From Betaproteobacteria bacterium (GTDB taxonomy: Bacteria > Pseudomonadota > Gammaproteobacteria > Burkholderiales > SG8-41): a stretch of 64,000 nucleotides of DNA. The notes under the pieces were generated by a model, which worked only from the letters and a program-made list of their open reading frames with translations, did no database searches and was not told the origin of the DNA. Shown here piece by piece: positions 3,287 to 46,486 of the stretch. The stretch lies in the NCBI GenBank assembly GCA_016868035.1, contig VGID01000001.1, positions 198,509 to 262,508 on the forward strand. Reading direction: 5' to 3'. How positions within the stretch are numbered: position 1 is the first letter of the stretch; the number at the start of each line of letters is the position of its first letter. The position numbers and the translations under genes were made by a program.

Positions 3287-3509
3287 CGCCGGCAACCTAG
3301 TATCTTCGTGCCGCCAGAGCCGCAACGCGCGACACGTCTCCGCATTCAACACCGCCTGTCGCCACTTGGCGACAGATACCGATCGCCTCCTGTCTCCCAT
3401 CGGAGACAGTCGCAGAAATTTTCGCTTTTCTAGGAACTCGAATTTTCCTGCGCAGTCGAACGCCGCGTTGCCGTACGTGGCAAGACACTTTTTTGAAAAG
3501 GAGACTCGC

Positions 3510-3761
3510 ATGATTCAGAAATTGTTGCTGGCGCTGTGCGGCGGTGCGCTCGCCGCATCCATGACCACCGTCTACGCCGACGAAGACAAGAAGCCGGAAA
3601 AGCCGCAAGCGCAGCTGATCCTGGCTGAGGAAGACAAGCAGCCCGAGAAGCCGCAAACGCAGCTGATCCTGGCTGAGGAAGACAAGCAGCCCGAGAAGCC
3701 GCAGGCGCAGCTGATCCTCGCAGAAGAGGACAAGCAGCCTGCGCAACCGCAACTCGCCTGA
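3510..3761 (+). CDS. small secreted protein made of 16-aa tandem repeats (83 aa)
   Basis: ATG 7 nt after an AAAGGAG SD. Signal peptide MIQKLLLALCGGALAASMTTVYA, then about 3.7 copies of EDK(K/Q)PEKPQAQLILAE. Confidence 0.6.
   Translation: MIQKLLLALCGGALAASMTTVYADEDKKPEKPQAQLILAEEDKQPEKPQTQLILAEEDKQPEKPQAQLILAEEDKQPAQPQLA
3582..3758 (+). repeat. 48-nt tandem repeat, about 3.7 copies, in-frame within the small secreted protein gene
   Basis: Units start at 3582, 3630, 3678 and 3726 (partial), with only a few substitutions between copies. Confidence 0.9.
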
Positions 3762-3979
3762 TCCGCTGCGAACGGGCACCGCAGCACCTGGCGTAGCGAA
3801 CCCGGGCGCGCCCGACCCGAGCGTGGGCGCGTCCGGTTTTCCTTGCAATGGCGCCACCGCCGTTTCGCGGCGGCAAATGGCGCGCGCCCTCGGGGTTGAC
3901 CGGGCCGGCAGCCCCATACTAATCTCGGCTCCGGTCCATCGCGGCCGCCACAGCGGCGGCAAAGAACGAACCCGGCGTC

Positions 3980-4252
3980 GTGAGCCTCTATCACGTACAA
4001 AAGCTGCTGTTCCACCTGAACAACGTGCCGTCCGTGCGCCGGCGATTCGATGCCGAGCGCGAAGCGTTGCTCGCCGAATACAGGCTGAGTGACGAGGAGC
4101 GGCGCGCGGTCACGCACGCCGATGTCGGCAAGCTCCATCTGATGGGTGTGCACCCGCTCCTGCTCGCGCCATTCGCGGGCCGCGTGGGGCTGCGCTGGCC
4201 CGATTATCTCGCGGCACTCCGGCGCGCGCGCGAAGCAGCGGGCGGGGGCTGA
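3980..4252 (+). CDS. LigA-like small subunit of a class III extradiol ring-cleavage dioxygenase
   Basis: 90-aa ORF (GTG start) directly upstream of a LigB-type gene (stop 4252, next start 4255). Sequence resembles the LigA domain by recall. Confidence 0.6.
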   Translation: MSLYHVQKLLFHLNNVPSVRRRFDAEREALLAEYRLSDEERRAVTHADVGKLHLMGVHPLLLAPFAGRVGLRWPDYLAALRRAREAAGGG

Positions 4253-35368: not shown

Positions 35369-36361
35369 ATGAAGCGCCTGCTCACTGCACTGCTGCTTGC
35401 CCTTACCACGGCGAATGCCTGGGCCGCGGGGCTCATCGTGGATACCGCATTCGTGAGCGAGGCCGTCCAGCGCGGCGCCATCGTCTGGGACGTGCGGAGC
35501 GCGGACCAATACCGCATGGGCCACATCCCGGGGGCGGTGAACATCGGTCATGCCGGCGCCGTGCTGCGCAATCCCAACACCGAGGACTTCATCCCCGTAG
35601 CCCAGATCGAGCGCATCCTCGGCGCCGCCGGCATCGATCCCGCGAAGGAGATCGTGGTCTACGCGAGCCGCGGCGACCCGTTCGCCTATTTCGGGCTCTA
35701 CACCATCCAGTATTTCGGCGGCAAGCGCGTCCACGTCTACCACGACGGCATCGACGGCTGGCGCGAGGCCGGGCGCTCGGTCAGCTCCGCGGGATACCGG
35801 CGCGCCCCCGTATCGCTGAAGCTCGCGACGAATCCCGCCGTGGCTGCGATGACCAGCGAAGTCATCGCCGCGCTCAAGCGGCGCGACGTGCAACTGCTCG
35901 ACGTGCGCACCGTGGGTGAGTTCACGGGCGACGACATCCGCGCCATACGGGGCGGCCACATCCCCGGCGCGGTAAACATCCCGTACGAGCAGAACTGGAT
36001 GGACCCCGACACCCCGCTCAAGGTCGCGCGCAGGCAGGCGAAGGACAACGCGGGCATGACGCTCAAGCCCGTGAACGAGCTCAAGCGCCTGTACTCAGGC
36101 CTCGACCCGGGCAAGGAGACGATCGTCTACTGCCAGAGCGGCGTGCGCGCGGCGCAAACCGCGACGGTGCTCTCGCAACTCGGCTTCAGGAACGTGAAGG
36201 TCTACGACGCGTCGTGGCTCGGCTACGCCGGGGTGCTCTCCGCTCCCGCTAACAACGAGGTGTTCTTCAACGTGGGCGCGCTCCAGGGCCGGCTCTCGGC
36301 GCTGCAGTCTCGCATCGATCAGCTCGAGCGCGAGCTCGGCGAAGCGCGGGCCAGGAAATAG
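35369..36361 (+). CDS. periplasmic tandem-rhodanese sulfurtransferase with C-terminal coiled coil
   Basis: 330 aa starting MKRLLTALLLALTTANAWA, after a GGAGG SD. Two rhodanese domains; the active-site CQSGVR loop is in the second. Confidence 0.85.
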   Translation: MKRLLTALLLALTTANAWAAGLIVDTAFVSEAVQRGAIVWDVRSADQYRMGHIPGAVNIGHAGAVLRNPNTEDFIPVAQIERILGAAGIDPAKEIVVYASRGDPFAYFGLYTIQYFGGKRVHVYHDGIDGWREAGRSVSSAGYRRAPVSLKLATNPAVAAMTSEVIAALKRRDVQLLDVRTVGEFTGDDIRAIRGGHIPGAVNIPYEQNWMDPDTPLKVARRQAKDNAGMTLKPVNELKRLYSGLDPGKETIVYCQSGVRAAQTATVLSQLGFRNVKVYDASWLGYAGVLSAPANNEVFFNVGALQGRLSALQSRIDQLERELGEARARK

Positions 36362-36391
36362 CAGCCGGCCGCCGCCGGCGCGGCGCGCGAC

Positions 36392-36422
36392 GGGAGCGAC
36401 GCGCTCGCTCCCGTTTTCGTTT
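36392..36422 (+). terminator. rho-independent terminator after the rhodanese gene
   Basis: GGGAGCGA...TCGCTCCC stem followed by GTTTTCGTTT. Confidence 0.65.
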
Positions 36423-36473
36423 CCACGGACGGCAGGCACCATTCCCGCCGGCTCCCGGTAGCCTGTAGAATTC

Positions 36474-39400
36474 GTGGCGTACGAGCGGCCGGCGCGCATG
36501 CATACCTTCCAACAGGTCATACTGAAGCTCAACGAGTACTGGGACCGGCGGGGCTGCGCGCTGCTCCAGCCCTACGACATGGAAGTGGGCGCGGGCACCT
36601 TTCACACGGCGACCTTTCTGCGCGCGATCGGCCCCGAGCCCTGGAATGCGGCCTACGTCCAGCCTTCGCGCCGGCCCAAGGACGGGCGCTATGGCGAGAA
36701 CCCCAACCGCCTGCAGCACTACTACCAGTACCAGGTGGTGATGAAGCCCTCGCCCGACGCGTTCCAGGAGCTCTATCTCGGATCGCTCGAAGCGCTGGGC
36801 GTGGACCCGCGCAAGAACGACATCCGCTTCGTCGAGGACGACTGGGAATCGCCCACGCTCGGCGCGTGGGGGCTGGGCTGGGAAGTGTGGCTGAACGGCA
36901 TGGAGATCACGCAGTTCACCTATTTCCAGCAGGTCGGCGGGCTCGACTGCAAGCCGGTGCTGGGGGAGCTCACCTACGGGCTCGAGCGGCTCGCGATGTA
37001 CCTTCAGGGCAAGGAGAGCGTGTTCGACCTCGTGTGGGTGGACGGCGTCAGCTACCGCGACGTGTACCACCAGAACGAGGTCGAGCAGTCGCGCTACAAC
37101 TTCGAGCTCGCCAACACCGGGATGCTGCTCCAGCACTTCGGACAGTTCGAGGCCGAGGCGAAGCGGCTGATCGAGGCGCAATGCGTGCTGCCGGCCTACG
37201 AGATGGTCATGAAGTGCTCGCACAGCTTCAACCTGCTCGATGCGCGCGGCGCGATTTCGGTGACCGAGCGCGCCGCCTACATCGGACGCGTGCGCGCGCT
37301 CGCGCGGCTGGTGGCGCAAGCCTACTACGAAGCGCGCGAGCGGCTCGGCTTCCCGATGCTGGAGCAACCGCATCCGGCAAAGAACAAGGCAGGCGCCTCA
37401 CCAATGCCAAGCCGCAAGACCGCCATGGCTTCCGCGCCCGCGAGTTTGCTCGTCGAGATGCTGACCGAGGAGCTGCCCCCGGGGGCGTTGCAACGGATCG
37501 CGGAGGCCTTTCGTGACGCGTTGCTGGAAGACCTGAAAGAAGACGGGTTTCTCATGCCCGGCAGCGCCGCGCAAGTTTTCGCGACGCCGCGGCGTCTTGC
37601 CGTCTTGATCTCGGAGGTGCGACGCGTTGCGCCGGATAGCGAAGTGCTGGTGAAAGGCCCCTCGGTCAGGGCCGGCCTGGATGCTGGCGGCCAACCGACG
37701 CAAGCCTTGCTCAAGTTCGCCGAGAAGCGCGGTGTTGCGGTCGAGGCCCTTGTTCGCATCAACGACGGCAAGCAAGAGGTCTTCGCACACCGTGATCTTG
37801 CGAAGGGAGGGCGCCTCGACACCAACCTGGAGCTAAAGATTGAAGAAGCGCTCAAACGCCTGCCGATCCCGAAGATGATGCGCTGGGGCGGCGGCGACGA
37901 ACAGTTCGTGCGTCCAGTGCACGGGCTGGTGATGTTGCACGGGATGAACGTTGTGCCAGGAAAGGTGTTGGGGGCAAGCAGCTCCAACAAGACCTCCGGG
38001 CACCGTTTTCTTTCTCCGGGAAGAATCGCGCTCGAGCGCGCGGACGATTATGAGCCAGCGCTGCGCGGCAAGGGCAAGGTGATCGCTGAGTTTGCCGGGC
38101 GCCGGTCCGAAATCGCGAACCGACTCGAGAGGGCTGCCGGCCGCGAAGCGATTATCGTCGCGGACGATGCGCTGCTTGACGAGATTTCCGCTCTGGTGGA
38201 ATCACCGGCGGTCTACGCCGGAAATTTCAGCGCGGAGTTTCTCACCGTGCCGCACGAGTGCCTGGTGCTGGCGATGCAGCAACATCAGCGATACGTCCCG
38301 CTGCGCGACAAGGCGAGCAGAAAGCTGCTGCCGCGCTTCCTGTTCGTATCCAACATCGAGGCGAAGGATCCGCGCGAGATCATCCACGGCAACGAGCGCG
38401 TGCTGCGCGCGCGCCTCGCGGACGCGAAGTTCTTCTTCGACCAGGACCGGAAGACGCGACTCGAGGCGCGCGTGCCCCGGCTCGCGGGCGTCATCTACCA
38501 CAACCGGCTCGGCAGCCAGCTCGAGCGCGTCGAGCGCGTGCAGCTGCTCGCGGGCAAAATCGCGCGGGCAATCGGCGCGGATCCGCTGCTCGCTGAGCGC
38601 GCGGCCTGGCTGTCCAAGGCGGACCTGCTGACCGACATGGTGGGGGAATTCCCCGAGCTGCAGGGAACCATGGGGCGCTACTACGCGCTGCACGACGGCG
38701 AGCCGCAGGCCGTCGCCGACGCGATCGAGGCCCACTACCGTCCCCGGTTCGCCGGCGACGACACGCCGAAGGACCCGATCGCCGCCGCCGTGGCGCTCGC
38801 CGACAAGCTCGACACGCTGGCGGGCATCTTCGGGATCAATCTCGTTCCCACCGGAGACAGGGATCCGTACGCGTTGCGGCGCGCGGCGCTCGGCGCCGTG
38901 CGCATCCTCGCCGAGAACAAGCTGCCGCTGGAGCTCGACGCACTGATCGCGGATGCCGCCTCCCATTACACCGCGGTGAAGCTCGACCCCGAAGGCGTGG
39001 GAAAGGTCTACGGGTTCGCGCTCGACCGCATGCGCTCCTACCTGCGCGAGTCCGCCTTCACCGCAGACGAGATCGAGGCGGTCGTCGCACAGAATCCCGC
39101 CCGCGTGGACCTCGTTCTGCCGCGCGCGAAGGCGGTGCGCGCGTTCCGGTCGCTGCCGGAGGCCGAGAGCCTCGCGGCGGCCAACAAGCGCATACGCAAC
39201 ATCCTGCGCCAGAGCGCGCAGGGCGGCGCAAGCCTCACCGAGTCGCTCTTCCGCGAGCCCGCGGAGCGCGAGCTGCACGACGCCGTGCGCCGCCTCACGC
39301 CCCGGATCGACGCGAGCATCCGCCGCCAGGACTACACCGATGCGCTGTGCGCGCTGGCGAGCCTGAAGGGCAACGTGGACACCTTCTTCGACAAGGTGCT

Positions 39401-39506
39401 GGTCAACGCGGAAGACCGGAGCCTCCGCGAGAATCGCCTCGCGCTGCTTACGCAGCTCTCGACGCTCATGAACGAGGTCGCGGATATCTCCAAGCTTGCC
39501 GCCTGA
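36474..39506 (+). CDS. glyQS: glycine--tRNA ligase, alpha (GlyQ) and beta (GlyS) moieties in one uninterrupted 1010-codon frame
   Basis: Residues 1-295 are GlyQ-like (ends ERLGFPM). A linker of about 25 aa contains no stop. From [12 protein letters not shown] onward the sequence is GlyS-like. An internal ATG at 37425 could also start a separate beta chain. Alternative glyQ start ATG 36498. Confidence 0.88.
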
Positions 39507-39509
39507 ACG

Positions 39510-39601
39510 CAGTGAACAGTACACGGTGAGCGGTAAACGGTAACTACATTTATGCACCCTTTTTCTTCTGCCCACCGCTCACTGCTGACCGTTCACCGTT
39601 C
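39510..39601. repeat. heptad-periodic inverted-arm element K (CAGTGAA/CGGTGAG/CGGTAAA arm, core, ACCGCTC/ACCGTTC arm)
   Basis: Starts 4 nt after the glyS stop and ends 4 nt before the gmhB ATG. Confidence 0.88.
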
Positions 39602-39604
39602 GCC

Positions 39605-40138
39605 ATGAAACTAGTCATCCTCGACCGCGACGGCGTCATCAACTACGACAGCGCCGCCTACATCAAGAGCCCCGAGGAATGGAAAGCGATTCCGGGCAGC
39701 GTCGAGGCGATCGCGCGCCTGACGCAGGCGGGCTTTCACATCGTCGTGGCGACCAACCAGTCGGGGATCGGGCGCGGCCTGTTCGGGATGGCCACGCTCA
39801 ACGCGATCCACGAGAAAATGCATCGCGCCGTCGGCCACGCAGGCGGCCGCATCGACGCGGTGTTCTACTGCCCGCACGCGGCGGAAGCCGGGTGCGGCTG
39901 CCGCAAGCCCAAGCCCGGATTGCTCGAGGAGATCGCGCGCCGGTTCAGCGCGAACCTGCGCGACGTGCCCTGCATCGGGGATGCGGCGCGCGACCTGGAG
40001 GCGGCGAGCGCCGTCGGCGCGCAGCCGATCCTGGTGCTCACCGGAAAAGGGAAGAAGACGCGCGCCGCGGGGGACCTGCCGCCAGGAACCCGCGTCTTCG
40101 CCGACCTCTCCGAGGCCGCGAAAGACATCGCAGGATGA
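39605..40138 (+). CDS. gmhB: D-glycero-beta-D-manno-heptose 1,7-bisphosphate 7-phosphatase
   Basis: 177 aa. Has the HAD motif DRDGVIN and the zinc-binding CxH...CxC (CPHAAEAGCGCRKP). Confidence 0.9.
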   Translation: MKLVILDRDGVINYDSAAYIKSPEEWKAIPGSVEAIARLTQAGFHIVVATNQSGIGRGLFGMATLNAIHEKMHRAVGHAGGRIDAVFYCPHAAEAGCGCRKPKPGLLEEIARRFSANLRDVPCIGDAARDLEAASAVGAQPILVLTGKGKKTRAAGDLPPGTRVFADLSEAAKDIAG

Positions 40139-40863
40139 CGCCGGGGATCATCACGCGATCGCTACTCTTCGCGCTGATCCAGGTCGTCGCAACACCCCTG
40201 TTCGCGCTCGCTGCGCTCGCGACGTTTCCCTTCAAGCCGCTCGCCCGCTACCGCGTCGTCACTGCATGGTCACGACTGATGGTCGCATCCGCCACGCGGC
40301 TCTGCGGGATACGTTACCGCGTGCTCGGCGCCGAGCGCCTGCCGCGCCCGCCATTCATCGTGCTCGCGAAGCACCAGTCCGCGTGGGAGACGCTCGTGTT
40401 CCAGGTGATTCTTCCCCCGCAGGTATGGGTGATCAAGCGCGGCCTGCTGTGGATCCCCTTCTTCGGCTGGGGTCTGGCAATGCTCTCCCCGATCGCGATC
40501 GACCGCGGCGCCGGGCGCCGGGCGCTGCGCCAGATGCTCGAGCAGGGACGCGAGCGGCTGGCGCAGGGCTTCTGCATCGTCATCTTCCCGGAGGGCACGC
40601 GCGTTCCCCCGGGCGCGCGCGGTCAGTATCAACCCGGCGGCGCGTGGCTCGCGGTGAAGACCGCGACGACGGTGGTGCCGGTCGCGCACAACGCGGGCGA
40701 AGTATGGCAGCGCCGGGCTTTGTTCAGGCGCCCCGGGTTGGTTACCGTGAGCATCGGCCCGCCGATCGAGCCCGCCGGCCTCGAGCCCGAGGAGCTCAAC
40801 CGCAAGGTGGAGGACTGGATCGAAGGGGAGATGCAGCGCATCGGCAACGACCCTAGGCGGTGA
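40135..40863 (+). CDS. plsC: 1-acyl-sn-glycerol-3-phosphate acyltransferase
   Basis: 242 aa within ORF 39679..40863. Motifs AKHQSAWE (HX4D variant) and FPEGTR. ATGA overlap with the gmhB stop. Confidence 0.86.
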   Translation: MTPGIITRSLLFALIQVVATPLFALAALATFPFKPLARYRVVTAWSRLMVASATRLCGIRYRVLGAERLPRPPFIVLAKHQSAWETLVFQVILPPQVWVIKRGLLWIPFFGWGLAMLSPIAIDRGAGRRALRQMLEQGRERLAQGFCIVIFPEGTRVPPGARGQYQPGGAWLAVKTATTVVPVAHNAGEVWQRRALFRRPGLVTVSIGPPIEPAGLEPEELNRKVEDWIEGEMQRIGNDPRR

Positions 40864-40990
40864 ACGGTGAACGGTGAACGGTGAACGGTGAACGGTGAAC
40901 GGTGAACGGTGAACGGCAGAAACGGACCCGCGTTTTCGTGGAAGTTCTCCGCTTACGGTTTCTTGCACTGCTCGCCGCCGACCGCTTACC
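40859..40990. repeat. heptad-periodic inverted-arm element L (8 x GGTGAAC, conserved core, degenerate GCTTACC-type arm)
   Basis: The first heptad contains the plsC TGA. Core AGAAACGGACCCGCGTTTTCGTGGAAGTTCTCCGC is shared with elements P, Q and C. Confidence 0.9.
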
Positions 40991-45058: not shown

Positions 45059-45463
45059 TCAGACGAAACGATTGCGCAGCGCACGGCCGCGCCGGGTGCG
45101 ATAGATGTGAAAGCCGCTGTCAAGCGTGGCGATGTCCCCAAGGCCCAGGGCATCCGCAAGCCAGAGCAGGCTCGCATCGGCAAAATCCATCGGCCGATCG
45201 GAATATTTCTCCATCAGCGCAGCGAGAAGTGGGAGATCTTGCGCAGGGACATGGACTAGAGCGAAATTGCTCCGCCCGATGCCGCGCAGGAATGGAGCGA
45301 TCCGGTGGCGAGGCAGCAGGGAACACGCTTCCGTAACCACCGCAACCGTCGTCAATAGCGCGCCGTCGAAGCCATCGAAAAAGGCGACTGCCGCTTGGTG
45401 CCGGCGCTCCGCCTCGTTGGCGAGCGCCACGAGCGGGCCGGTGTCAACGATCAGCCTTCGCAC
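45059..45463 (-). CDS. PIN-domain toxin (VapC-like)
   Basis: GTG start (VRRLIVDTGPLVAL) within ORF 45059..45508. Acidic PIN residues are present. Overlaps the upstream antitoxin by 20 nt. Confidence 0.8.
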   Translation of the reverse strand: MRRLIVDTGPLVALANEAERRHQAAVAFFDGFDGALLTTVAVVTEACSLLPRHRIAPFLRGIGRSNFALVHVPAQDLPLLAALMEKYSDRPMDFADASLLWLADALGLGDIATLDSGFHIYRTRRGRALRNRFV

Positions 45464-45704
45464 GGAAGGCCTGGCGCAGATACTTCTGGTGATTCTGGCC
45501 GAGATCACGCGGGCCCGAGAAGCAGCCTACGAAGCCCAGTTCGCGCGCGACCTGCCCAAACGGCTTGCGCCGGGCGGCGCGCGCGAGATCCATGATCGCG
45601 CGCTTGACGACTTCCGAGCGCGACGCCCCGAGTTCCTCGCACAGCGCGGCGAGCGCCGCCGCTTCCTGATCGTCGAGCCGCACCGTGAGCATTTTCATCA
45701 GCAA
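45444..45704 (-). CDS. ribbon-helix-helix (CopG-like) antitoxin
   Basis: 86 aa. N-terminal beta-strand MLTVRLDDQEAAAL is followed by two helices. Paired with the PIN gene. Confidence 0.8.
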   Translation of the reverse strand: MLMKMLTVRLDDQEAAALAALCEELGASRSEVVKRAIMDLARAARRKPFGQVARELGFVGCFSGPRDLGQNHQKYLRQAFRAKADR

Positions 45705-45804
45705 CCTGGACCGGTGAATTGTATTACAACAATAATACCCTGACCCCGTGAAAGTCGCAATGAATCAGATGAAACCACGGCGTTCATGGAAAGAACGCCG
45801 CGTG

Positions 45805-46257
45805 TCAGGATTTCAGGCCGAGCAGCCCCGCGAGATCCTTATGGGTGAGCGGATCGACGATGCGCACGCCCTCGAGCACCGATTCGGCGCTGAAGTCCTC
45901 GCTCAACAGCAAACTCACGCCGGCATCGCGCGCCGTCGCCCACAGCAGGGCATCCCAGAATCCGATCCGCCGTGAGACGGTTGCCGCAATCGCCCGGTTC
46001 AGGGTCGAAGCTTTCGCCACCACGACCGGGAAGAGGTCCTGCCAGGCTTCCACCTGCGCCTTGGCTTCCGCCGCGGGAAGCTTGCCCTTGCGCGTAACGG
46101 CAAAATAGAACTCGGCAAGCGCCTGGAGCGTCAGGACGCAGTCGGCCTTCAGCGCGAGCGCGACGAGCTTCTGCGCCTTGACATGCTTGTCCCTGGCGCT
46201 CGTATCCACCGCGTACACGAGCAGGTTGGTGTCAACCGTGACGCGTTCCGCGCTCAT
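45805..46257 (-). CDS. vapC: PIN-domain toxin VapC
   Basis: 150 aa. VTVDTNLLVYA and further conserved acidic residues. Confidence 0.87.
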   Translation of the reverse strand: MSAERVTVDTNLLVYAVDTSARDKHVKAQKLVALALKADCVLTLQALAEFYFAVTRKGKLPAAEAKAQVEAWQDLFPVVVAKASTLNRAIAATVSRRIGFWDALLWATARDAGVSLLLSEDFSAESVLEGVRIVDPLTHKDLAGLLGLKS

Positions 46258-46486
46258 GGAGTTCGTCCCTGATCACTTTCCCGATGTTCAGTTCCCGCGC
46301 GCTCGACTTGATCAGATTCCAGGCCCGCAACTGCGCCGCGGTCGGCTCGCGCAAACGGCTCACTTTGACGATCCTGGCAATCGGCTTGCCCCGCCGCGTA
46401 ATGATGACCTCCTCGCCGCGCTCGACGGCCTCGATGTAGCGCGAAAAGTTCTGGTTCGCTTCCCTCAGGCTGACCTGCTGTTTCAT
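46232..46486 (-). CDS. Phd/YefM-family antitoxin
   Basis: 84 aa. VSLREANQNFSRYIEAVERGEEVIITRRGKPIARI is typical. Overlaps vapC by 26 nt. Confidence 0.87.
   Translation of the reverse strand: MKQQVSLREANQNFSRYIEAVERGEEVIITRRGKPIARIVKVSRLREPTAAQLRAWNLIKSSARELNIGKVIRDELHERGTRHG

Follow-up and report, generated by a model that had tools for sequence, protein, structure and literature searches.

The bacterial-type glycyl-tRNA synthetase (GlyRS) is usually an alpha2-beta2 tetramer whose separate subunits dissociate easily (PMC9908026), and the two subunits are fused 'in plastids and some bacteria' (PMC10164559). The natural fused enzymes are active and possess disordered linkers of 16–25 amino acids (PMC10164559; bioRxiv 10.1101/2021.08.20.456953), the linker of the rice plastid enzyme being 16 amino acids long (PMC10164559). 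The Anaerolinea thermophila and Thermanaerothrix daxensis enzymes are naturally fused and active as a dimer, with linker residues at ∼290–315, and the A. thermophila protein was cut within the linker during purification (bioRxiv 10.1101/2021.08.20.456953). An engineered Escherichia coli alpha-beta fusion, joined by a 4-amino acid linker, exhibits approximately half of the wild type activity (PMC3990555). Here we describe the glyQ-glyS locus of a freshwater betaproteobacterium, located in a 64,000-nt stretch of contig VGID01000001.1 (positions 198,509 to 262,508 of the forward strand; hereafter the window), in which the genes for both GlyRS subunits form a single reading frame. With good confidence, we interpret this locus as the product of a very recent glyQ-glyS fusion, generated by loss of the glyQ stop codon and giving one alpha-beta GlyRS.

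The locus shares features with each of the closest described systems. The natural fused (alpha-beta)2 GlyRS of T. daxensis/A. thermophila (crystal structure, PDB 7LU4) is likewise a chain of ∼1000 amino acids in alpha-linker-beta order and matches the window protein from end to end (E 8.5e-232). It is, however, only ∼41% identical, originates from another phylum and has an unrelated linker sequence; in addition, the 7LU4-type fusion is old and common to related species, whereas a relative with 97% identity lacks the window fusion. The (alpha-beta)2 enzymes of plastids and Chlamydia (rice OsGlyRS2, 7XJY/7XOF/8H1C; Chlamydia trachomatis) correspond in domain order, disordered linker and fold but are 36–37% identical to the window protein and of independent origin. 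In engineered head-to-tail fusions of E. coli GlyQ and GlyS (PMC3990555), separate proteobacterial subunits were also joined by removal of the stop and spacer, although there a 4-amino acid linker was added to native termini, whereas the window linker stems from a point mutation and the activity of its product is a prediction. The ordinary alpha2-beta2 operon of betaproteobacteria (loci L084, L001 and L002) has the same genes and neighbourhood, with 97% DNA identity in L084 and conserved tails in L001 and L002, but carries TGA, TAG or TAA after glyQ and a separate glyS start at most 3 nt downstream of, or overlapping, that stop. A fused GlyRS is a known architecture, of which the window case is an independently arisen and very young example.

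Reading frame and domain content

A single stop-free frame of 1010 codons extends from 36474 to 39506 on the forward strand, as observed in both the list of open reading frames (ORFs) and the raw sequence. Within this frame, the GlyQ-like sequence (...ARERLGFPM, to 37358) continues into the GlyS N-terminus, which begins at 37446, with no stop between the alpha and beta parts. The original observation of one uninterrupted frame is therefore confirmed, and the alpha, beta and DALR domains in it are complete. Its length of 1010 codons applies to the maximal ORF, which opens at GTG 36474, and not to the coding sequence. The Met matching ATG 36498 (MHTFQQ/MLTFQQ) is the first residue in every close GlyQ homologue and, because these homologues and the public gene calls start at this codon, the coding sequence most likely covers 36498–39506, or 1002 codons. 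The corresponding features are as follows.

36498–39506, + strand: fused glyQ-glyS coding sequence, most likely 1002 codons plus a TGA stop, predicted mass 111.3 kDa; start placed by homologues and public gene calls
36507–37340, + strand: GlyRS alpha (catalytic) domain, PF02091 tRNA-synt_2e, amino acids 12–289 of the 1010-amino acid ORF, E 7.8e-149, profile positions 1–278 of 278
37446–39086, + strand: GlyRS beta-subunit core domain, PF02092 tRNA_synt_2f, amino acids 325–871, E 3.7e-188, profile positions 1–535 of 536
39177–39476, + strand: DALR anticodon-binding domain of the beta half, PF05746 DALR_1, amino acids 902–1001, E 4.7e-9

Both halves pass the corresponding NCBIfam equivalog-domain models, TIGR00388 (glyQ) with 513 bits against a cut-off of 361 and TIGR00211 (glyS) with 785 bits against a cut-off of 300. 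At each of more than 150 columns that are invariant in 51 fused homologues, the window protein retains the invariant residue. Judged by its domains, the product would be a bacterial-type GlyRS composed of a class II alpha domain, a beta core with CCA-adding-like and HD-like parts, and a DALR domain. The exact 1002-amino acid protein is public as MBM3356323.1, under the name 'MAG: glycine--tRNA ligase subunit beta [Betaproteobacteria bacterium]' (MAG, metagenome-assembled genome), and over 9 kb the window is matched at 100% identity by JGI contig Ga0194121_10000054. At 90% identity, the fused protein (P0121) is clustered, together with a 711-amino acid GlyS, under a 295-amino acid GlyQ representative (P0122), so that homology searches restricted to representatives miss it; other fused proteins may be hidden by clustering in the same manner.

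A single substitution at the glyQ-glyS junction

The 90% cluster containing the window protein also contains a 300-amino acid GlyQ (P0133, ending ...AKNKAGA) and a 711-amino acid GlyS (P0132, beginning MPGRKTA...), which are separate proteins encoded on one metagenomic JGI contig, L084 (JGI 3300055072). Over 5.1 kb, L084 and the window are 97.1% identical at the DNA level. When aligned, the junction reads GCC TCA CCA ATG in the window and its JGI copy and GCC TGA CCA ATG in L084. The G to C change at window position 37399, which converts codon 301 from a stop to Ser, is the sole change needed for fusion. At more distant loci the junction reads TCC TAG ACG ATG (L002, also in frame) and AGC TGA gc ATG (L001), and both loci have homologous tails, that of GlyQ being rich in lysine and the GlyS N-tail following the pattern M-A-(K/R)-x-K-T-A. 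Comparison of the junction with relatives, which had been proposed at the outset, thus yields TGA in L084, TCA in the window and a stop in all outgroups, which identifies TCA as the derived state. The junction is made up of the following segments.

37359–37397, + strand: former GlyQ C-terminal tail, with which the linker now opens; matches the final 13 residues of P0133 (L084) exactly
37398–37400, + strand: TCA (Ser) codon at the ancestral glyQ stop; TCA in the window and L083, TGA in L084, TAG in L002, TGA in L001
37401–37403, + strand: CCA (Pro), formerly the 3-nt intergenic spacer; L084 reads TGA CCA ATG
37404–37445, + strand: ancestral glyS start ATG (37404–37406) and GlyS N-terminal tail, now the last part of the linker; corresponds to the starts of P0132, L001 and L002 (MAKAKTAKAPATDSLLVE)

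The stretch from GFPM to LLVE comprises 29 residues (37359–37445), rather than the approximately 25 codons first estimated for the linker. It consists of 13 residues of the old GlyQ tail, Ser-Pro derived from the stop and spacer, and 14 residues of the old GlyS N-tail, all parts originating from former tails, stop and spacer without any new sequence. Two further non-synonymous changes distinguish the window from L084 within the linker. Comparison with the start of glyS in relatives places the ancestral start at ATG 37404. The internal ATG at 37425, to which attention had originally been drawn, is ACA (Thr) in L084, a derived Thr-to-Met change having occurred in the window, and was rejected as the glyS start. 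An origin of the fusion by frameshift or indel was also rejected, as the junction alignment shows a pure substitution.

In the ancestor, glyS would have been located in the glyQ frame 3 nt downstream of the stop, a distance short enough to point to translation by termination-reinitiation coupling. A single G to C transversion at 37399 would then have changed TGA to TCA (Ser), ribosomes reading on into glyS and producing one alpha-beta chain of 1002 amino acids and ∼111 kDa.

The ratio of non-synonymous to synonymous substitution rates (dN/dS) relative to L084 is 0.05 for glyQ and 0.30 for glyS, the latter having ∼31 non-synonymous and ∼35 synonymous changes (window 37404–39482). In three neighbouring genes, encoding a rhodanese, a HAD/PNK3P-type phosphatase and a decarboxylase-family protein, the ratio is 0.10–0.16. 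By this measure, purifying selection acts on both halves in the comparison with L084. Between the two loci, the glyS 3' end and the intergenic region behind it have been replaced (window 39483–39604 versus L084 5080–5210): the window protein terminates in ...ISKLAA and that of L084 in ...ISRLEDFSGDAPTKSLK, 11 amino acids longer, and the spacer of ∼100 nt cannot be aligned.

Junction state in betaproteobacterial relatives

Genomes were scanned with the GlyS half, one genome per species, and the best 80 of at least 581 confirmed loci were evaluated, so that fused betaproteobacteria outside those 80 are possible. Nearly all of the 80 loci are named as Betaproteobacteria or betaproteobacterial genera or families, a few metagenome-assembled genomes being assigned only to Proteobacteria, Pseudomonadota or Gammaproteobacteria. 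A glyQ stop precedes glyS in each of the 74 loci containing both genes, TGA being used in 51, TAA in 20 and TAG in 3. The two nearest metagenomic GlyS proteins of the first protein search (66% identity; loci L081 and L082) are also encoded separately, with stops 1–6 nt before the glyS ATG. The presence of a stop at all 74 loci indicates that the fusion is derived and recent. The claim that fusion is atypical among relatives of this organism is thereby upheld, the nearest homologues of both halves being separate as well.

Stop-to-start distances of −4 to +5 nt are found in ∼33 of the 74 relatives, start positions being heuristic. In 10 of the 74 species (L002, L007, L008, L031, L036, L038, L053, L058, L067 and L079), glyS lies in the glyQ frame with the glyQ terminator as the sole in-frame stop. 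These species are one substitution short of fusion, and the transition is therefore easy to reach. A different arrangement is observed at L010–L013, L022, L027, L039, L041, L044 and L074, where glyQ and glyS are 430–680 nt apart (positions ∼3450–4000 in each); these loci belong mostly to Chromobacteriaceae and other Neisseriales, and the gap is large enough for an inserted small gene.

Relation to other fused enzymes

Among the 120 best-matching database clusters (90% identity) for the window protein, approximately 110 represent fused proteins of ∼1000 amino acids. Named clusters include Gammaproteobacteria, Acidiferrobacterales, Legionellales, Magnetococcales and others, and several are encoded on megabase contigs. 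Together with 7LU4 and the published statement on plastids and some bacteria (PMC10164559), these clusters indicate that the initial description of fused chains as characteristic of Chlamydia and plant organelles was too narrow. The linkers of the other fused proteins do not share sequence. A Met located 6–8 residues before LLxE in fused proteins P0002, P0003, P0012, P0028 and P0089 resembles a vestigial glyS start codon, and these vestigial-looking residues hint at repeated, independent stop-loss or frame-restoring fusions.

Predicted structure and function

An AlphaFold 2 (AF2) model, generated from an alignment of 50 fused homologues, has a mean predicted local distance difference test score (pLDDT) of 90.5 and a predicted template modelling score (pTM) of 0.81. 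Residues 292–310, within the linker, form the sole segment with pLDDT below 50, the rest of the chain averaging ∼90, and residues 283–314 are without secondary structure. The whole chain superimposes on 7LU4_A with template modelling (TM) scores of 0.87/0.89 and on rice plastid GlyRS with TM scores of 0.85–0.92. Measured from GFP to LLxE, the linker is 30 amino acids long in the window protein and 11–103 amino acids, with a median of 30, in natural fused proteins. The linker is predicted to be flexible or disordered, and its length in the model would allow the alpha half to dock onto the beta half of the same chain, in the manner of known (alpha-beta)2 enzymes.

A flexible linker, combined with packing of the halves as in natural fused enzymes, suggests that the product would charge tRNA-Gly as an (alpha-beta)2 dimer, the equivalent of the usual alpha2-beta2 tetramer. 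The fusion is perhaps neutral, or it may stabilise a weak alpha-beta association; by analogy with GlyRS whose separate subunits dissociate easily, a benefit from tethering is possible.

Alternative explanations

The gene could in principle belong to an old fused lineage, of the Chlamydia, plastid, Chloroflexi or gammaproteobacterial type, either inherited or acquired horizontally as a fusion. Fused homologues are numerous and constitute the top full-length matches, and the window protein aligns end to end with both 7LU4 and rice plastid GlyRS. The halves considered individually give a different result. GlyQ is closest to P0133 (99.3%), followed by twelve 295-amino acid proteins at 87–90%, and GlyS is closest to P0132 (95.6%), followed by proteins at 64–66%, all of which are unfused, whereas identity to the best fused homologues reaches 82% for GlyQ and 53% for GlyS. 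In addition, synteny with L084 is complete, the linker is built from the tails of L084 itself, and the equivalog for the Chlamydia-type fused glycine--tRNA ligase (NF011499, PRK14908) scores 1036.4 bits, below its curated cut-off of 1244. The window protein is therefore not filed in that equivalog, and the shortfall fits an origin separate from the lineage represented by the model. Horizontal gain of a ready-fused gene is refuted by the comparison with L084, and the converse proposal, in which L084 is a secondary split, is contradicted by the outgroups; descent from an old fused lineage is close to untenable. An assembly artefact, in which position 37399 is really G (TGA), glyQ and glyS are two genes and the fused ORF is confined to assemblies, also has points in its favour, as one base alone separates the fused from the unfused state, all other betaproteobacteria examined are unfused, and the source is a metagenome assembly, in which a consensus may mix strains. 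Nevertheless, the identical 1002-amino acid protein is indexed on 6 contigs across JGI, ENA and NCBI. One of the contigs compared, the ENA MEGAHIT contig L086 (185 kb), carries the same TCA at the junction, was produced by a different assembler and differs from the 170 kb JGI contig by 1 single-nucleotide polymorphism and a 14-bp tandem-repeat indel over 23 kb, identifying it as a separately built assembly. Recovery of the same TCA in this second assembly makes an assembler artefact unlikely. The change at 37399 is a substitution outside any homopolymer, substitution errors are rare in deep short-read consensus, and both the two additional non-synonymous linker changes, which reflect genuine divergence from L084, and the purifying selection on both halves count against an artefact. 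An exact-pattern scan in which the stop position of the junction was set to N gave 0 matches in metagenome_contigs, a collection that contains neither the JGI contig of the window nor L084. We consider an artefact decidedly improbable, and most of the initial concern over a missed stop or indel is removed by a single substitution relative to the unfused relative (TGA to TCA, 37399) with the same base in a second assembly.

It is also conceivable that the fused ORF is real while the cell relies mainly on separate subunits, generated by an internal start at ATG 37404 and/or proteolysis of the linker, with function unchanged. ATG 37404 is retained with the purine-rich AAGGCAGG 11–18 nt upstream, the linker is predicted to be disordered, and purification of the fused A. 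thermophila enzyme was accompanied by cleavage in the linker (bioRxiv 10.1101/2021.08.20.456953). However, the Shine-Dalgarno-like element is weak and poorly spaced, the ancestral 3-nt stop-to-start distance suggests termination-reinitiation coupling, which read-through would abolish, free alpha subunit could arise only by proteolysis, and natural and engineered fused enzymes function as single chains. Predominance of separate subunits is therefore unlikely. A recent stop-loss fusion acting as a single alpha-beta chain remains the probable interpretation, and several considerations weigh against it. With ATG 37404 and the weak purine-rich stretch intact, some free beta subunit could still be produced. 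Because the alignment behind the AF2 model comprised fused homologues, the placement of the two halves may be biased. Both compared assemblies possibly derive from the same or related samples, in which case a systematic error or a minority allele may appear as the consensus. The dN/dS of glyS exceeds that of the neighbouring genes, which may be typical for the beta subunit but could also reflect relaxed constraint or post-fusion change. Finally, no other fused betaproteobacterium was found among the 74 examined, although 10 are one stop-loss away. A possible reading of this absence is that fusions of this type carry a mild disadvantage and are short-lived in the clade, and the fusion may be neutral to slightly disadvantageous here.

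UGA followed by C is the leakiest stop context, as judged by termination efficiencies in E. coli. The same-frame 'UGA-C, one codon, AUG' junction might accordingly be pre-adapted to fusion: relatives may already leak a minor share of fused chain by read-through, and the window lineage would have fixed it since tethering stabilises the interface, making fusion recurrent and selectable. Although we regard this proposal as doubtful, a recurrent, selectable fusion would be in line with the lack of relatedness among linkers in other fused lineages, some of them with a vestigial Met. If it were true, the window locus and its 97%-identical sibling would provide a natural matched pair for the fitness or kinetic effect of subunit fusion.

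Neighbourhood of the locus

The gene order lnt, rhodanese, glyQS, HAD/PNK3P-type phosphatase, acyltransferase, LptM-like and Orn/DAP/Arg decarboxylase-family is common to the window and L084. One candidate regulatory feature precedes the fused gene.

36389–36415, + strand: terminator-like hairpin after the upstream rhodanese gene, 11-pair stem with 7 G-C pairs followed by a T-rich tail

From its position, glyQS may begin a transcription unit of its own; terminator-like matches are no more frequent than in shuffled sequence, so that the hairpin is weak evidence. A promoter scan of 36200–39700 gave no match, and an Rfam scan of the window detected tRNA-Met alone and no leader RNA upstream of glyQS.

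Between the acyltransferase and LptM-like genes, a perfect 7-bp tandem repeat (CGGTGAA, 8.4 copies) occupies window 40858–40916; its copy number varies between assemblies, as L086 has exactly two copies fewer. Further along, two adjacent toxin-antitoxin-like pairs, PIN with RHH_1 and PIN with a PhdYeFM antitoxin, are encoded on the minus strand at window ∼45059–46486 (L085 18562–19989), downstream of an ECF-type sigma factor gene.

Significance

The locus does not represent a new kind of enzyme and leaves knowledge of the GlyRS mechanism unchanged; to a specialist the case is neat and unsurprising. For the fused protein, the public name 'glycine--tRNA ligase subunit beta' is incomplete. The window gene is in effect a natural counterpart of the engineered E. 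coli fusion, earlier work on which, as cited by a later paper, is reportedly that of Toth and Schimmel in 1986. When the subunits of an essential enzyme become fused, the event is as a rule seen only long afterwards, whereas here the causal mutation can be read directly, and the locus shows the ease with which an (alpha-beta)2 GlyRS can arise from an alpha2-beta2 enzyme. With the near-identical unfused sibling L084 as a control, the two loci form a matched pair in which the cost or benefit of tethering weakly associated subunits could be assessed.

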